Of a DNA stretch of 64,000 nt, positions 30,203 to 48,710 are shown in pieces. The notes under the pieces are model-generated. The model was not told where the DNA came from. It did no database searches and saw nothing but the letters and a program-made list of their open reading frames with translations. The stretch is taken from NCBI GenBank assembly GCA_001661245.1, contig KV454015.1, positions 310,001-374,000 on the forward strand. Direction: 5' to 3'. The position numbers and the translations under genes are program-made. This DNA is from Pachysolen tannophilus NRRL Y-2460 (taxonomy: Eukaryota). Every line of letters starts with the position of its first letter. Positions within the stretch are counted from its first letter, which is position 1.

Positions 30203-31165
30203 ATGAAGTATTCCGTTTTAGTGTTTTCCTTATTACAAACTTTGAGTTTCACCAGCGCTGCTGCTGTTGCAGCTGGTGCAGGTGTCGATATTAGTGTTGG
30301 AGACATTGGTATTGATCTTACTGTTGGACTGGATACAGTCACAGTTACAGACGATGTGACCGTCACTGATGATGTTACCGTTACTGATTCTGTCACAGTT
30401 ACAGATTCAGTTACAGTTACGGATTCAGTTACTACTACTGATTTCCCAACAACTGCAACACCAACAACTGCAACACCAACAACTGTAGCTCCAACAACTG
30501 ACGTTCCAACTACTCAAGTTCCAACTACTGATGTTCCAACTACTGATGTTCCAACTACTGATGTTCCAACTACTGATGTTCCAACTACTGATGTTCCAAC
30601 AACTGACGTTCCAACTACTGATGTTCCAACTACTGATGTTCCAACTACTGATACTCCAACAACTCAAGCTCCAGCACCACCAGTCACCGTAACTACTACT
30701 TTGACTCATCATTTCCCAACTCCACCAGGATTGACTACTAGAAGTCCAATTATTCCTTTTACTTCCTACTTCAATTCTTCATCAGTGGCACCAACAACCT
30801 CATCATCACCAGTTCCACTCCCTGACACTACAACTACTAATCCAGGAGGTCCAATTGAACCTACAACATCTACTAACCCAGGTGGTCCAATTGAACCTAC
30901 TACAACTTCTCCGGATACAGGTTTCCCAACTACAACTTTAACTACTCCAGGAGCAACATTTGATACTACTACATCAGCTGCAGTTGCAATTGGTTTCCAA
31001 TGTGGTGGTTTCGGATTTGATGGTAGCACTGATTGTGTTAGTTCAGCTACTTGTAGTACTTTGGACCCATACTATGCTCAATGTGTTGAGACATCTATTG
31101 CTGATCTCGGTATTCCACCAAGATGGATCCGTAGACGTGGGGAAATTGCAAATGCTTTGTTCTAA
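30203..31165 (+). CDS. Secreted Thr/Pro-rich repeat (mucin-like) protein with a C-terminal CBM1 cellulose-binding module
   Basis: Signal peptide MKYSVLVFSLLQTLSFTSAAA; VTVTD[D/S], PTTDV and TNPGGPIEPT repeats; QCGGFGFDGSTDCVSSATCSTLDPYYAQC has the CBM1 cysteine spacing. Confidence 0.85.
   Translation: MKYSVLVFSLLQTLSFTSAAAVAAGAGVDISVGDIGIDLTVGLDTVTVTDDVTVTDDVTVTDSVTVTDSVTVTDSVTTTDFPTTATPTTATPTTVAPTTDVPTTQVPTTDVPTTDVPTTDVPTTDVPTTDVPTTDVPTTDVPTTDVPTTDTPTTQAPAPPVTVTTTLTHHFPTPPGLTTRSPIIPFTSYFNSSSVAPTTSSSPVPLPDTTTTNPGGPIEPTTSTNPGGPIEPTTTSPDTGFPTTTLTTPGATFDTTTSAAVAIGFQCGGFGFDGSTDCVSSATCSTLDPYYAQCVETSIADLGIPPRWIRRRGEIANALF
30337..30667 (+). repeat. Intragenic minisatellites: 18-nt (VTVTDD/S) units followed by 15-nt (ccaactactgatgtt, PTTDV) units
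   Basis: Near-identical tandem units read directly in DNA and protein. Confidence 0.9.
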
Positions 31166-33917: not shown

Positions 33918-35316
33918 TCATTCATCGATTGTGGTGTTGTTGGTTGCATTGTGCATGCTGACTTCAGCAATAGTTGTGTCATCATTTTTAGTAATATCCT
34001 GGATTATAGTATCATCTGGATGATGAGATCGAGATTGGTAGTCTCTGTAAATCTTGCTAGGATCAGACATCATAGAAACTGTCTTTGTTGGCTTTGTATC
34101 TGATATTTCCTTCCAATCTTTGGATTGTGCATTATCATTTGTTAATTTTTTCTTATCTCCAATTTTAATACTATTTGTTTTACCAAATGCATTTTTTTCA
34201 AATGTCCAAGAACCTAATGAAGAATTTTTTTTATCAATTGTGTTAATAGACAGAGGTAATTTATCTCTCAAGATTTTATCATCTTCTTCCATTTTTTTAC
34301 GAATTAATGCCACATCAGCTAAAAAATCTTTTTTAACTGTACCAACATTTGTATCTTTAAAACTATCATTAAAATTACACCATTTCACATTATATATGGA
34401 AATTGATGCACCATCATGATTTGAAAGCCAACTTCTAGAATTATAGTTATTTCTATAAGAACCTTGATATTTTTGTAAAGCTGGTAATATGATTAAAGTA
34501 ACAATTAAATCACCTTCTGTTGTTGGATTTTCTTCATTATCAAAAGGTAACAAATTTTGAATTGATTTTAAATTATCAAGATTCCCCGGTGTTGAAGATA
34601 TAATTTCAGATTTATCAATAATATTTTTAAAATTTTTAAACGGAGATTCAGAAGGTATAACACCACAATGGTATAATATAGAAACAATATCTGAATCATC
34701 AGTATATATATCTGTTCCCCAAATACTTCTTTTAAAAACATTTTCATTATTTAAAATAGCATGATAAGGAATTTTAATATCTACCAAACAATTAATATAA
34801 TTTTTCAAATAAGGTGGAAGTAAAGAAATAATCTTGGAAGGTTTATTCTTCAACTCTTTTTCATGCTTTATTAAATATTCTTGATAATCCAATTCATCTT
34901 CTTTAACTCTTCGTTCATCTTCTTTTGTCAATCTTAAATTTCTAACCACAGTATCTCTAGTTGGAAATTGTTGATATATTATTGAACCAAGATGCTTCCT
35001 AGGAAACAAATTTGCATCTTCCAAGACAGATTTATTATTGATAATAGTTTTAGGTTTTTTGAAAGGAACAGGATTTAAATCCTTAGTACTAATATCTATA
35101 TCAGCAACTCTTTTCCAATAAACTGGGGTCTCTGCAGATTGAGATCTATGACGCAGATGACTCGACAGTCCACCTGGACGAGAATAGTGGCGATGGTGGT
35201 GATGATGGTGATGATGGTAATGTATAGGCGGCCGCTCTTGTTCTTTGTTTTGAACTTGTAATTGATACTCTGCAGCCAGCAGTAGCTGTTCCAGTTGTTG
35301 CAGCTGCAGCAGCTGC

Positions 35317-35353
<37 letters not shown>

Positions 35354-36665
35354 GCTGTTGCTGTTGCTGTTGCTGATGAACAAACAGCAGTTGTTGCAGT
35401 TGCTGCTGCTGAAATAATTGATAGTTCAATTGTCGTTGTTCCTCCATCATCGCTTCTTGGCGTTGATGTTCTTCTAAAGCTCTGTGCCTTTCCAGTTTCA
35501 GGTGCTGTTCGTATAAGGCCTGTTGCAGTTCTTGTTCCTGCTGCAGCTGCAGTTGCAGCATCAGTTTAAGCATTTTCTCTCTTTCTCTTTTTTCTTTATT
35601 TTTACGTTTCCGTTCTTCTTTTATTCGTTTTTCCTTTTCTTCTTCTTCGAATCTTATTCTTTCTTGTTCTTGTCTTTGAGCTTCTATTAGTTGTAATTCT
35701 TTTTCTCTTTGTTCTTCTAAATCAGGTACTATATTTTGTCTTCTAATATCAATACCTAGCTGGACAGGAGTTGGTAAATTGTATAACATTCTCTTGTCCT
35801 CGGAACCTGCATTTTTCGTATGAGATTGTTGAGACAGTGAAGAAGCTAGCGAAGTTCGTGGCAGTGGAAGTTGCAGTTGCAGAGGAGGTTGCAGTTGCAG
35901 TAGAGGCAGCGATGCCAGCGATGCCAGCAGCAGCAGCAGCAGATGATGGTGGTGATGGTTATGGTGTTGGTGATTAACATCTTCCAATTTGATAGGGTTT
36001 GTATTTGCCAAACTGTTGATGTTGGGTAACCTCGAAGACGACGATTGCTGTGATTGTTGTGATTGTTGCGGGTGTTGCGGGTGTTGCGTATGCTGCGGCC
36101 CGTTGTTATTCCCAGAACTATTATTTCTATTATCATTTATTGCCGTAGCAGCACCAGGAGTACTTTTGTTACCATTTCCAGCTCCAAAAGGCACAGGTCC
36201 AGGTACGGGCACAGGTCCATATGGAGAAGTTGCCGAGCCTAATGGAGGTAAATGGACCCCACTTCCAATACCTGAGGAGGAATGCCTGCTATGTGTTTGA
36301 GTATGAGTCTTAGGTTCTTGTTGTTGTTGTTGATGTTGATGCAGTGCAGCTGGACCTTTATCGCTACTGTTATGAACATCACTGCTTGGTGACAACAAGT
36401 TTGAGAGTCCCATTGTGGCCGACGAGTTTGAAGGCCTTGTAAAAGAATTTAATAGAGAAATTGGAGCCAACCTAATACCAGATCCCGAACCAGATCCAGG
36501 ACCAGACGCTTGTCCAGACCCTGAACCGCTGTTATTGGCGGTTCCATTATCTTCATTATTCCCATTCGAATTATTCTTCCCAACATTCCCAGAAACGTTG
36601 CCCTGTGAAATAGAAGGCAAGCGCACACCACTGCTTGTGTTATTATTGAGCGGTAATTGAGACAT
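33918..36665 (-). CDS. RXT3: Rpd3L histone deacetylase complex subunit Rxt3 with a long low-complexity N-terminus
   Basis: IWGTDIYTDDSDIVSILYHCG, YQGSYRNNYNSRSW..HDG and FPRKHLGSIIY; near RPL31 as in S. cerevisiae. Confidence 0.88.
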
Positions 36666-40566: not shown

Positions 40567-41610
40567 TCATATATGTGACATTTCAAGTCTATTTTTTCTA
40601 CTTGGGATTTCTATTCTTTCTCCAAATCCTGGTTCATTGTTTCTTTTAAGATCGAAATTCTCATCAAACCAGTCAACCATTTCCACTGTTGATTTCAAGT
40701 CCATTAGTTGTAAATGTAAGGCTTTATCGATTTGACCTTCTAACATACAATCCATATGATGTTGTAAAAGTCTAAATGGTAATCCATATGAAGAAGCTAA
40801 ATCCCAAAATTTTTCAATAGCTCCCCATGGGGTCTTGGAGAAACCAGCAAATAGTGCTGGGTTCAGTAATATTCCTCTAACAGCCATAATACCATCAGCA
40901 TTAGTATAATTTGCTATCTTATAGGCATCTTCTAATGAAAAACAATCACCATTTGCAACAACGGGGCAACTAACATTTTCTTTAATTAATTTTATTGCAT
41001 CAAAATTTGCTGGTTGTGAAGACCTTGTTGTCTTTGTTCTTCCATGAACTGTAATAAAATCAACACCTGCTTTTTCTATAATTTTAGCAAATCGTACAGT
41101 TTCTTGTAAATCATCATGAATTCTAATTTTTGTTTCCATACATAATTTATCTCCATATTTTGATTTTACTGCAGAAACAAGTTCTGCAACTTTTTCAGGT
41201 GTTGACATTAAAGCTGCACCAATTCCTTCTCTAACTTGTTCTTTAACAGGACATCCACAATTTAAACCTATACCATCAACATAAGGATAAATCATTTCAC
41301 ACATTCTTAATAAATCAGTTACATTATTACAACCTATTTGTACAATTAATGAACGATCTCTTTCATTTGTTGTAAAATCAGAATATCTAGCAATATCATT
41401 TCTAACAAATTCTCTAGCAAGAATCATAGGTGAATAAACAATATCACATTTATATTGTCTTAACAACTCTCTAAATGGTAATTTCGAATACCGAACCATA
41501 GGACCAGCAATAAATGCAGGTCTTTTCTCTTTCTTACATCTAGCCAATATAGCTAATGGATTATGTTCTGGATTCCTCAGTGGTAGTGTAGAAAGATTTG
41601 GTTCAATCAT
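40567..41610 (-). CDS. DUS4: tRNA-dihydrouridine(20a/20b) synthase
   Basis: AGPMVRYSKLPFR, LNCGCP, GIGAALM, ITVHGRT and VANGD motifs; ATG (MIEPN) at 41610. Confidence 0.93.
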   Translation of the reverse strand: MIEPNLSTLPLRNPEHNPLAILARCKKEKRPAFIAGPMVRYSKLPFRELLRQYKCDIVYSPMILAREFVRNDIARYSDFTTNERDRSLIVQIGCNNVTDLLRMCEMIYPYVDGIGLNCGCPVKEQVREGIGAALMSTPEKVAELVSAVKSKYGDKLCMETKIRIHDDLQETVRFAKIIEKAGVDFITVHGRTKTTRSSQPANFDAIKLIKENVSCPVVANGDCFSLEDAYKIANYTNADGIMAVRGILLNPALFAGFSKTPWGAIEKFWDLASSYGLPFRLLQHHMDCMLEGQIDKALHLQLMDLKSTVEMVDWFDENFDLKRNNEPGFGERIEIPSRKNRLEMSHI

Positions 41611-42349: not shown

Positions 42350-44173
42350 ATGTCATTAGAAGTTTCGCAAGATATGTCAGGTGAGGGTTTGTCTCTTAAA
42401 AGACTGGGTTCAGTGACGGAAGAAGTTGGAGCTGTACTGATTAAAAAACAACGTCTGGATCAAGTTTCTGAGGGTGGTATTAAAGATAAGGGTATTGCAT
42501 TGATTAAGCCTGAATTTATTCTTGAAAAGCAAGAGAATATAATAAGTTATGACGATGATGAAGCTGAATCTGCTAAAATGAAGCCAAGCAATAAAGGTGA
42601 TAATGATAGCAATCGTAATGATAGTAATCGTAATGGTAGTAATTCAAATGAAAGTAAGAGAAGTAAAAGGGGAAGAGGTCAAAATAAAAATCGAGATTTA
42701 AAACAAGAACATGAAGAGATAAGATTGTGTTCTTCGTTAGTTGATCCAGAAGACAACTCGAAGGTTTGTAGGTTTGGTCCTGAAAAATGTCGAAATGAAC
42801 ATGATGTTACCAAATACCTTTTGAATAAACCATCAGATATTCCAGGAATTTGTCCAGTTTTCCAAGTAATTGGATATTGTCCAGCAGGTTTGAAATGTAG
42901 ATGGTTAAATTCACATTATGACAAGGAACATAATAGACTAATCAAGGGAAAAGATTTTACAAAAGAAGAATTAGATGATACTATGAAGTTAAAAGAAGAA
43001 ATTAATTGGATTAACCCAAGAGATAAAATGTTATTACAGAAAAAAAAATTTAATTTTGAAATATCAGAAAAATATATTCCATATTTAGATTCACTTGTAC
43101 AATCTGAAGCTACACCTTCTAAAAAAGAATTGGAAGATCAAGGTAAGACTCATCAAGATTTTAGAAAAGAAAATGAAGCACAATATATTGAAGCACCATT
43201 TAAAATTGGTGAAAAGAAAAAATTATATTTGAAAAAAGCCAAGATTCTTTCACCCTTAACAACTGTTGGAAATTTACCATTTAGAAGATTAATGAAAACT
43301 TTAGGTGCAGATGTAACTTACTCTGAAATGGCATTAGCCTTGCCACTTTTACAAGGAAATAATTCTGAATGGGCACTTCCAAAAGCTCATAAGTCTGAAT
43401 ATCCTGGTTTTGGTGTACAAATAGCTACTTCAAAACATTGGCAAGCAGCAAAAGCTTGTGAAGCTATTTCAAAATTTACTCCAAACGTTTCAGAGATAAA
43501 TCTTAATTGTGGTTGTCCAATTGATTTGTTATATAGACAGGGTCAAGGATCTGCATTAATGGAACAGCCTCCAAGGTTATTAAGAATTTTGGAAGCCATG
43601 AATGCTTGTTCTAATGATATACCTATCACTGTTAAATTAAGAACTGGAACCAAGCAAGGACATTTGGTAGCAGATAACATTGTTAAAAGAGTAGTTGATG
43701 CAAATGTTGCAAGTGCTATAACTTTGCATGGTAGAACAAGACAGCAACGTTATACAAAAGAAGCTGATTGGGATTATATTGCAAAAATTGGTAGTATAGT
43801 TAAAGAGACAAATGAAGAAATGCTAGATAATAAAGATTTAACTGATAGATCTGAACCTGTTTGGTTTATAGGTAATGGTGACTGCTTTAATTATGAAGAT
43901 TGGTATAAAGCAGTAGAAACTCCTGGAATTGATAGTGTAATGGTTGCTAGGGGTGCCTTGATCAAACCATGGATTTTTGAAGAAATTGAAGCTCAACAAT
44001 ACTTGGATAAATCAGCTTCAGAAAGATTATCAATTTTAGAAAAATATGCAAAATTTGCCGTTGAACATTGGGGTTCTGATGAGTTTGGTATAAACAATGC
44101 AAGGCAAGCTGAAAGCTTATCAAAAGATTACGAAGAAGTTAATAACGAAGTTAAATCCAAGAAAAAGGCTTAA
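42350..44173 (+). CDS. DUS3: tRNA-dihydrouridine(47) synthase Dus3 (aa 1-585) fused in frame to a 22-aa Yet3/BAP31-type C-terminal tail
   Basis: CCCH fingers, LSPLTTVGNLPFRR, LNCGCPID, TLHGRTRQQRYTKEADW, VMVARGALIKPW and EHWGSD; then an abrupt switch to QAESLSKDYEEVNNEVKSKKKA. Confidence 0.93.
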   Translation: MSLEVSQDMSGEGLSLKRLGSVTEEVGAVLIKKQRLDQVSEGGIKDKGIALIKPEFILEKQENIISYDDDEAESAKMKPSNKGDNDSNRNDSNRNGSNSNESKRSKRGRGQNKNRDLKQEHEEIRLCSSLVDPEDNSKVCRFGPEKCRNEHDVTKYLLNKPSDIPGICPVFQVIGYCPAGLKCRWLNSHYDKEHNRLIKGKDFTKEELDDTMKLKEEINWINPRDKMLLQKKKFNFEISEKYIPYLDSLVQSEATPSKKELEDQGKTHQDFRKENEAQYIEAPFKIGEKKKLYLKKAKILSPLTTVGNLPFRRLMKTLGADVTYSEMALALPLLQGNNSEWALPKAHKSEYPGFGVQIATSKHWQAAKACEAISKFTPNVSEINLNCGCPIDLLYRQGQGSALMEQPPRLLRILEAMNACSNDIPITVKLRTGTKQGHLVADNIVKRVVDANVASAITLHGRTRQQRYTKEADWDYIAKIGSIVKETNEEMLDNKDLTDRSEPVWFIGNGDCFNYEDWYKAVETPGIDSVMVARGALIKPWIFEEIEAQQYLDKSASERLSILEKYAKFAVEHWGSDEFGINNARQAESLSKDYEEVNNEVKSKKKA

Positions 44174-44560
44174 ATGTCAAAAAGAAACCAGTTTTTCTTT
44201 TTCTTTTTTTTTTTTTATTTTAATTTTTATCTTTTATGAGATATAATTAAGAGTTTGATAAATAATTTTATTATTAAATTTATTGATGCACTTTTTAATT
44301 TTGTTTTCTTATTCTCTTGATTCAGAAGAATAAGAATTACTTTTATGTTTTGGTTCAAATGAAAATCCTTTACCAGCTGGACCTAAAAACATTTCAGATA
44401 TTTTAATCCAATCTTTGTAATCACTTGAGCCTAACAACGTTTCTAATTCATTTCTTCCTTTCCACAGAGGTGGTCTTTCATTTAACTTTGGTGGAAGCCT
44501 TTCTAAGATACCAATTGGAATATATCTATGAGTAAAAGACATGAATTCACATAAAAATCT
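44105..44560. other. Inverted segment carrying the 3' ends of DUS3 and YET3 and their intergenic region (breakpoints +/- a few nt)
   Basis: Reverse-complementing this segment gives ...[15 protein letters not shown]... (complete Dus3) and ...AILKE-QAESLSKDY...KKKA (complete Yet3). Confidence 0.9.
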
Positions 44561-45190
44561 TTCTTTTAATATAGCAATAGTATCATTTCTCTCTCCTAAA
44601 GTACGCTTCAATGAAGCAACCTCGTCGCTATCAACACTCGAACGCTTTTCAGCAGAAGTAGCTTGATCTTTAACAAGTAACAATTCAGCAACTAAAGCAT
44701 AAGTTCTATTTAATATCAACGTCAAAAATAAAGTAAACCCGCATAGATACATATTTCTTTGAGCATAAAACTTTCTGGCTTGAATCTCTGCCCTACTATC
44801 TGGTGCAATAGCCGAAGGAATGATACCACTAGTGATTCCACCACCTTTACTGGAAGGACCCAACTCTGCTGTAACTCTAAAGACTCTATTGACGGAATCA
44901 ATGAATAGAACTAGTATGAAACCTAATATGCATCTGAATGCAATTTGAACCTCTTGAGAACGCAAAGGCTTACTAACCGTTGAGAGCAATGGTCTTCTAA
45001 ATCTTCTAGGTAATGGTAATGATAGAAGAGTGAAGAGTCCCATTTCAATTACCAATAGAGAAAATACCTAAAATATACATAACAATTGACAATAACATGT
45101 TAATAATGCTTCCTTCACAATTATTTTCGAAATCAAAAAAAAAAAAAAAAAAAAAACTAAGAAACTTACTAAACTGTAATACAACGCCAT
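44309..45190 (-). CDS. YET3: BAP31/Yet3 ER membrane protein (aa 1-176; exons 45190-45170 and 45067-44309) fused in frame to the 83-aa Dus3 C-terminus
   Basis: Spliced start [55 protein letters not shown]; then [47 protein letters not shown]. Confidence 0.9.
45068..45169 (-). other. Spliceosomal intron of YET3 (102 nt)
   Basis: GTAAGT donor at 45169, TATTAAC branch-like site at 45105-45099, TTTAG acceptor ending at 45068; phase 0. Confidence 0.85.
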
Positions 45191-45785
45191 TTTTCTTTTC
45201 TTTGTTGCTTTTCCTTTAATTCACTATCAGTATACTAGATCAAACAATATAATAACGAGTAGACGATGGCAAAAAGAATATAATGAGCAGAGTTATTAAA
45301 TGAAGTGATGACTAGTTCATATTAAATGCAACTATAGATAGCAAGTAAAATCAAAATGTCCTAAACGGGACATTTTGGACCATTTAAGTACTACGGCTAA
45401 CATCTTGCACCATTTGCACCATCTACACCATTTGAATCAGTTATGCCGTTTACATCAGTTTTACGGTAAAAAGTAATTCACCATTTGAGTATATTCCATT
45501 ATAAATCTACTTGGAATAATTTTTTGTAACTCTTTTACTTTATAGAAATTTCCGAAATGACTCAATCAAATGTATATGTATTATCTTCTGCCTATTTTGC
45601 AGAAGTATAGATTAATTAAAATTATCAATAAAAAATAAATAAGTTATATATGGAAATGCAAAAGTGAAAGCAAATAAAAAAAAAAAGAATAACAATAACA
45701 ACCAAAGAATGTAACATTAATAAAGAATAGCTTTTTTTTTTTGTCTCTTTCATGTAAAACCAGAGTCTAAAATATAAATATAAAA

Positions 45786-48275: not shown

Positions 48276-48710
48276 NNNNNNNNNNNNNNNNNNNNNNNNN
48301 NNNNNNNNNNNNNNNNNNNNNNNNNNNNNNNNNNNNNNNNNNNNNNNNNNNNNNNNNNNNNNNNNNNNNNNNNNNNNNNNNNNNNNNNNNNNNNNNNNNN
48401 NNNNNNNNNNNNNNNNNNNNNNNNNNNNNNNNNNNNNNNNNNNNNNNNNNNNNNNNNNNNNNNNNNNNNNNNNNNNNNNNNNNNNNNNNNNNNNNNNNNN
48501 NNNNNNNNNNNNNNNNNNNNNNNNNNNNNNNNNNNNNNNNNNNNNNNNNNNNNNNNNNNNNNNNNNNNNNNNNNNNNNNNNNNNNNNNNNNNNNNNNNNN
48601 NNNNNNNNNNNNNNNNNNNNNNNNNNNNNNNNNNNNNNNNNNNNNNNNNNNNNNNNNNNNNNNNNNNNNNNNNNNNNNNNNNNNNNNNNNNNNNNNNNNN
48701 NNNNNNNNNN
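48276..48710. other. Assembly gap (435 N) flanked by poly-A tracts
   Basis: N run in the sequence. Confidence 1.

Follow-up and report, generated by a model that had tools for sequence, protein, structure and literature searches.

The exchanged 3′ ends of DUS3 and YET3 in the Pachysolen tannophilus reference probably reflect a 458-bp orientation error

In the reference genome of the yeast Pachysolen tannophilus NRRL Y-2460, two convergent genes, DUS3 and YET3, each end in the C-terminus of the other. Does the organism carry two hybrid genes, or does its draft assembly carry a short block the wrong way round? The window analysed here is a 64,000-nt stretch of that assembly (GCA_001661245.1, contig KV454015.1, positions 310,001 to 374,000), which Riley et al. 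2016 is said to describe; all coordinates below are positions within the window. A first-pass annotation, made from the letters alone, had proposed a reciprocal, in-frame swap of tails between the two genes.

Two convergent genes with exchanged ends

The DUS3 frame, as called, runs from 42350 to 44173 on the + strand (607 aa) and ends in a C-terminus of Yet3/BAP31 type, while exon 2 of the YET3 frame runs from 45067 to 44309 on the − strand and ends in the conserved Dus3 C-terminus. The 5′ part of DUS3 (42350..44103, + strand; codons 1-584 and two bases of codon 585) encodes CCCH zinc fingers and the Dus catalytic domain. It abuts a block of 458 bp (44104..44561), which comprises both 3′ ends together with the intervening spacer and whose orientation is opposite to that in read-derived contigs. 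Within the block, the 3′ end of YET3 (44104..44173, + strand) consists of the last base of a Glu codon, the 22 codons QAESLSKDYEEVNNEVKSKKKA and a stop, and is in-frame with DUS3; the spacer of the convergent genes follows (44174..44308), with a T-rich tract at 44187-44237; and the 3′ end of DUS3 (44309..44561, − strand) consists of 83 codons starting RFLCEF and a stop, plus a single base left from the broken Arg codon, and is in-frame with YET3. Beyond the block lie the 5′ part of YET3 exon 2 (44562..45067, − strand), which encodes the Bap31 transmembrane region together with the coiled coil's first half, an intron of 102 nt (45068..45169, − strand; GTAAGT...TTTTAG), the splice of which matches the public model P0121, and exon 1 (45170..45190, − strand), with the seven codons MALYYSL. 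Counted from the first ATG of exon 2, the − strand open reading frame (ORF) spans 44309..45043 (244 aa). Towards its C-terminus the + strand ORF reads ...EHWGSDEFGINNAR and then QAESLSKDYEEVNNEVKSKKKA, and the − strand ORF reads ...NDTIAILKE and then the Dus3-type 83-aa tail RFLCEF...PKHKSNSY.

A Pfam scan of the + strand ORF matched PF25585 (DUS3L-type CCCH zinc fingers) over two stretches (E 1.6e-16) and PF01207 (Dus domain) at residues 300-573 (E 8.3e-46), giving the order of zinc fingers and then catalytic domain that is typical of Dus3. The C-terminal extension, contiguous with the catalytic part in the family, is found in the window on the opposite strand (44309-44561), whereas the read-derived contigs show it joined directly to the remainder of DUS3. 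The Dus match covers positions 2-251 of the 311 in the profile; a reading of this short cover as a truncation of DUS3 was dropped because canonical orthologues look alike (2-244 and 2-251).

The − strand exon-2 ORF matched PF05529 (Bap31 transmembrane region) at residues 1-129 (E 1.9e-36), as expected of the membrane part of a Yet3/BAP31 protein. PF18035 (Bap31_Bap29_C) is present in Yet3 orthologues (at 146-185 in P0128 and 150-182 in P0136), but the same scan gave no match to it in the window YET3 ORF at E <= 1. The 22-aa tail of the + strand ORF corresponds to the second half of this Bap31_Bap29_C coiled coil. The family's coiled coil with a basic KKxx-like end, KKxx being an ER retrieval signal, is detached from the membrane part in the window and contiguous with it in the read-derived contigs.

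Both tails could be placed by alignment. The 83-aa − strand tail matched residues 553-631 of the Kuraishia capsulata Dus3 (P0003) with 64 of 79 residues identical (E 2e-46), and showed 74-80% identity to all six aligned Dus3 orthologues, with 48 invariant columns. The 22-aa + strand tail matched the very end of the Yet3 orthologue P0122 (residues 188-200; 10/13, E 2e-05), and aligned to the C-termini in 6/6 Yet3 orthologues. Judged by these alignments, the matches of each tail to the other gene are far beyond chance, placing each tail with the opposite gene and the block in an inverted state relative to the family-typical gene pair. The first-pass annotation had described the + strand Dus3 ORF as ending in a BAP31/Yet3-type tail and the − strand Yet3 ORF as ending in the conserved Dus3 C-terminus, and had named alignments of each tail with its present N-terminus as the result that would speak against a swap. 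Both descriptions hold, and each tail aligned with the other gene's family, which upholds the swap. Its further claim, that flipping the block restores a 668-aa Dus3 and a 198-aa Yet3 in frame, was reproduced by script: reverse-complementing the block in silico yields a Dus3 of 668 aa and a spliced Yet3 of 198 aa.

In other yeasts, the orthologues of DUS3 and YET3 all have the unflipped structure. The two genes bear consecutive locus tags in at least six other yeast species, adjacency here being read from the tags. A full-text literature search found no paper naming both DUS3 and YET3.

Read-derived contigs and breakpoint anatomy

Among seven public sequencing runs, five contain the stretch 43500-45200; these come from two studies, and none is recorded as RNA. 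The word share was 0.87 in all five, and none of them contained additional words, for instance those of the window's own junctions. Logan contigs were compared at the locus for four runs, of which X1, X2 and X3 derive from one sample and X5 from another sample and study.

All four runs gave the same picture. One contig follows the window from 43500 to 44103, where it switches strand and goes on from 44561 down to 44238. A second descends from 45123 to 44562 and then, likewise on the other strand, ascends from 44104 to 44186; the repeat at 44187-44237 was skipped in the comparison. The joints 44103->44561 and 44104->44562 have zero shared and zero inserted letters, and the uninverted joints are spanned by 83 to 255 letters on each side. 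Contig word depth was about 177-180 for X1, 93-123 for X5, 16 for X2 and 67-68 for X3. The window's own junctions occur in no contig piece of the four runs, contigs showing the majority form only, such that a rare form could be hidden. In a collection of metagenome contigs neither the window's left junction (38 nt) nor a control stretch taken from within DUS3 had a match; the locus is absent from that collection, which therefore speaks for neither form. Within the compared pieces no letter differs from the window. The only other difference is an extra T behind 44291 in 4/4 runs, inside the block and in its spacer, where the contigs have T6 and the window T5 (44292-44296). The runs thus disagree with the reference at both junctions and agree with it elsewhere but for one 1-nt homopolymer difference, as is expected of an assembly error.

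The difference of a single T amounts to one event across 458 bp, as against none across about 1,100 compared flanking bases, and is weak alone.

The contigs also correct the anatomy of the breaks. The first-pass annotation had put the block at 44105-44560, about 456 bp, with breaks at codon boundaries; an inverted block with swapped tails stands, but its limits are 44104-44561, one base wider at each end (458 bp), and each break interrupts a codon behind its second base (in DUS3 after nt 1754 of the frame, phase 2). The swapped third bases are synonymous, exchanging AGG and AGA for Arg and GAA and GAG for Glu, so that the protein-level picture is unchanged by the corrected boundaries. On the nature of the event, where the annotation had left a real inversion and an artefact side by side, the artefact is now favoured and a biological inversion has become the minority reading, given that the contigs of 4/4 runs are uninverted. 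Reads supporting only the uninverted arrangement had been named beforehand as the result that would speak for a misassembly, and, as far as the contigs of these four runs and two studies show, the uninverted junctions are the only ones present.

No recombination substrate is visible at the breakpoints. Of 156 inverted pairs in 43600-45100, the 25 longest include none that brackets the block, and complementarity at the breaks is 4/20 between the outer flanks and 7/20 between the inner ends. Within 40 nt either side of the breaks, exact inverted matches do not exceed 7 nt, a length reached by 54% of shuffles. A Pfam scan of the 27 other window ORFs of at least 110 aa found no recombinase family among them, and, in what is a coarse test, no cut or split matches of the inversion type in the 24 that had a hit; the remaining three were without a match.

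The public reference and the origin of the flip

The flip is already in the public reference. A protein search with the + strand ORF (8000 candidates scored, 2125 homologues at E <= 0.001, the best 120 of 2125 listed, with Dus3 names) returned as its best match P0001, the product of PACTADRAFT_85914 of P. tannophilus NRRL Y-2460 itself. P0001 shares 561/561 aligned residues with the window ORF, the 35 other columns being gaps from two skipped in-frame stretches, and it crosses the hybrid junction ...GINNAR -> QAESLSKDYEE, which places the flip in the public assembly. The last 14 residues of this model are encoded at 44617-44658 on the + strand, antisense to YET3; this segment is a spurious terminal exon, added by annotation after the hybrid junction. 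The YET3 model P0121 (PACTADRAFT_59135), on the same scaffold of 1,269,836 bp, is marked ‘partial’: it has 137 aa and ends before the junction, and it supplies the spliced YET3 N-terminus. Neither the exact hybrid 607-aa ORF nor an uninverted 668-aa P. tannophilus Dus3 is among the best 120 of the 2125 matches, so the protein collection is no independent witness for either orientation; among the matches listed, the hybrid junction occurs only in the reference's own gene model.

According to an excerpt of a published account, GCA_001661245.1 is a scaffold-level assembly of 12.60 Mb; its contig N50 falls in the 10^4 bin, and N makes up slightly less than 2% of it (PMC13232491). The only N-run in the window, 435 N at 48276-48710, lies 3.7 kb from the block with poly(A) on both sides, and resembles a scaffold gap at a homopolymer.

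Since the contigs from two independent studies show the uninverted form only, in DNA otherwise identical to the window, we favour an orientation error, made locally during assembly or finishing of this draft, scaffold-level reference, and regard this as the probable explanation. The true locus would be an ordinary convergent pair, with DUS3 (668 aa, a tRNA-dihydrouridine(47) synthase) facing YET3 (198 aa, a BAP31-like ER membrane protein), and the public NRRL Y-2460 draft would carry the 458-bp block 44104-44561 the wrong way round. The two in-frame ‘chimeric’ ORFs would be by-products of that error, both breaks sharing a codon phase by chance, a 1-in-3 event as the first-pass annotation had also reckoned. 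While the flip itself is present in the public assembly and the contigs of both studies are unflipped, its origin in the assembly rather than in cells is what we infer.

Several further observations were counted in weighing an error. On its side were the scaffold-level state of the assembly, the 435-N gap nearby, the breakpoints without an inverted repeat and the unflipped orthologues, together with the one T missing from the block, which adds a further local mismatch of the reference with the reads. Counted on the other side were the seamless junctions, set in unique sequence that contains neither N nor repeat. Since assemblers normally write a junction only when reads carry it, a perfectly reciprocal flip would be unusual as an error.

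The same joints, seamless and reciprocal with no base lost or gained, would be hard for an assembler to invent, and are what a real, balanced 458-bp inversion would leave behind, one that was very recent, private to the culture sequenced for the reference and absent from the other sequenced samples. Such an inversion is unlikely, and so, to the same degree, are the hybrids that it would have made: the Dus3 catalytic part with the Yet3 coiled-coil, KKxx-like end, and the Yet3 membrane part with the C-terminal 83 residues of Dus3. Both reading frames do remain open, and a strain of this kind could live, given that DUS3 and YET3 are non-essential in Saccharomyces cerevisiae; but open frames at the two joints would arise by chance one time in three and do not require selection, and no inverted repeat or microhomology is seen at the breaks. 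The uninverted form in 4/4 runs from two studies, with no differing letters at the compared bases except one T, and the lack of extra words in the five runs containing the locus, both argue against it, as does the finding that the exact 607-aa hybrid is not among the matches listed, where the junction is confined to the reference's gene model. The four runs may or may not include the reference assembly's own data; if they include none, the reference isolate could truly differ.

A programmed, reversible switch that swaps C-termini, comparable to flip/flop inversion in yeasts or to bacterial inversions that alter genes, is close to excluded. The tails do lie tail to tail, as in such switches, and P. 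tannophilus does have one programmed inversion, at MAT, according to an excerpt of its description (PMC6692504). At the block, by contrast, no inverted repeats mark the boundaries, and the contigs of 4/4 runs hold the uninverted form only, although a rare form could hide; were both forms common in one sample, contigs should break at the boundaries, but they run through the uninverted joints in all four runs. The tails are unrelated to each other and each is conserved with its own gene across yeasts, and the 27 other window ORFs of at least 110 aa include no recombinase family. Excluded as well, unless the public protein record stems from elsewhere, is a flip introduced by data handling after the window had left the public record. 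A clean reverse-complement of a block is just what software would do, but the public NCBI/UniRef protein P0001, a prediction from the public assembly, has the hybrid junction, and the YET3 model of the same scaffold is ‘partial’. Together, these comparisons leave the orientation error as the preferred reading, and the two hybrid genes most likely have no biological reality.

Consequences and comparison with known systems

If the block is an orientation error, the public record of P. tannophilus NRRL Y-2460 contains two incorrect gene models: PACTADRAFT_85914 would be a Dus3 that has a foreign tail and, after it, a spurious last exon, and PACTADRAFT_59135 a Yet3 cut to 137 aa. Orthologue sets, phylogenomic matrices and proteomics databases that use these models would inherit the fault. 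There would also be a caution for scans that work from sequence only, in that an apparent ‘gene fusion’ in a draft assembly, however clean and in-frame, needs a read check before it is taken for biology. If the inversion were true, the locus would be a natural reciprocal exchange of exon tails between convergent genes, a strain-private curiosity and not a new kind of system.

Three known systems invite comparison. The flip/flop MAT locus is a DNA inversion in the same species as the window block; as described in the excerpt of its account, the inversion is inducible and turns an 8-kb region with flanking 2-kb inverted repeats (PMC6692504), whereas the block measures 458 bp, has no inverted repeats and appears in a single orientation in the runs. 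Closer to the block are the orientation errors of draft assemblies, where likewise a short stretch disagrees with read-derived contigs in a scaffold-level assembly of short contigs. Among scaffold errors, small inversions form a recognised class; a passage of a review names them for Hi-C scaffolding, which is another type of data and so only a general parallel (PMC6550390). Compared with the usual mis-oriented contig, the window block differs in its junctions, which are seamless and free of N and of repeats.

The third comparison is with the canonical convergent DUS3-YET3 pair, for example in Kuraishia capsulata (P0003/P0128) and Millerozyma farinosa (Piso0_003836/Piso0_003835). As given, the window departs from this pair in that the final 83 codons of DUS3 have changed places with the final 22 of YET3. 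Once the block is re-turned the architecture is the same, with Dus3 ending in ...PKHKSNSY and a few further residues, and Yet3 in its coiled coil and basic end.

A homopolymer difference and the public DUS3 model

Comparison of the window with read-derived contigs revealed a length difference in a T-run at 44292–44296, which has five T in the window versus six T in the contigs from all four public sequencing runs. The run lies within the flipped block, the segment inverted in the window relative to those contigs, and is a short way downstream of the DUS3 stop codon.

The public NCBI DUS3 model for this strain (PACTADRAFT_85914) omits two in-frame stretches of the + strand window ORF, 42386–42463 (26 codons) and 43142–43168 (9 codons), treating them as putative introns. 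All three CTG codons of the DUS3 ORF fall within the first omitted stretch.

A second Dus-family gene beside DUS3

The − strand carries another member of the Dus family at 40567–41610 (PF01207, E = 1e-75, profile positions 2–292 of 311). This gene and DUS3 are divergent and 740 bp apart, with the gene on the upstream side of DUS3, so that dihydrouridine synthase paralogues stand side by side here.

Other features of the window

The sole N-run of the window (48276–48710; 435 N) is flanked on either side by long poly(A) tracts, and looks like a scaffold gap at which contigs had broken at a homopolymer.

CTG codons were much commoner in the Rxt3-domain ORF (33918–36665, − strand), with 34, than in adjoining ORFs (0–11), and many of them, read as Ala (table 26), sit within Ala- and Gln-rich runs.

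A repetitive Thr/Pro-rich ORF on the + strand (30203–31165) carries a C-terminal fungal cellulose-binding domain (CBM_1, E = 5.4e-09). Its predicted product is apparently secreted, and the domain seems not to be one expected in a budding yeast.
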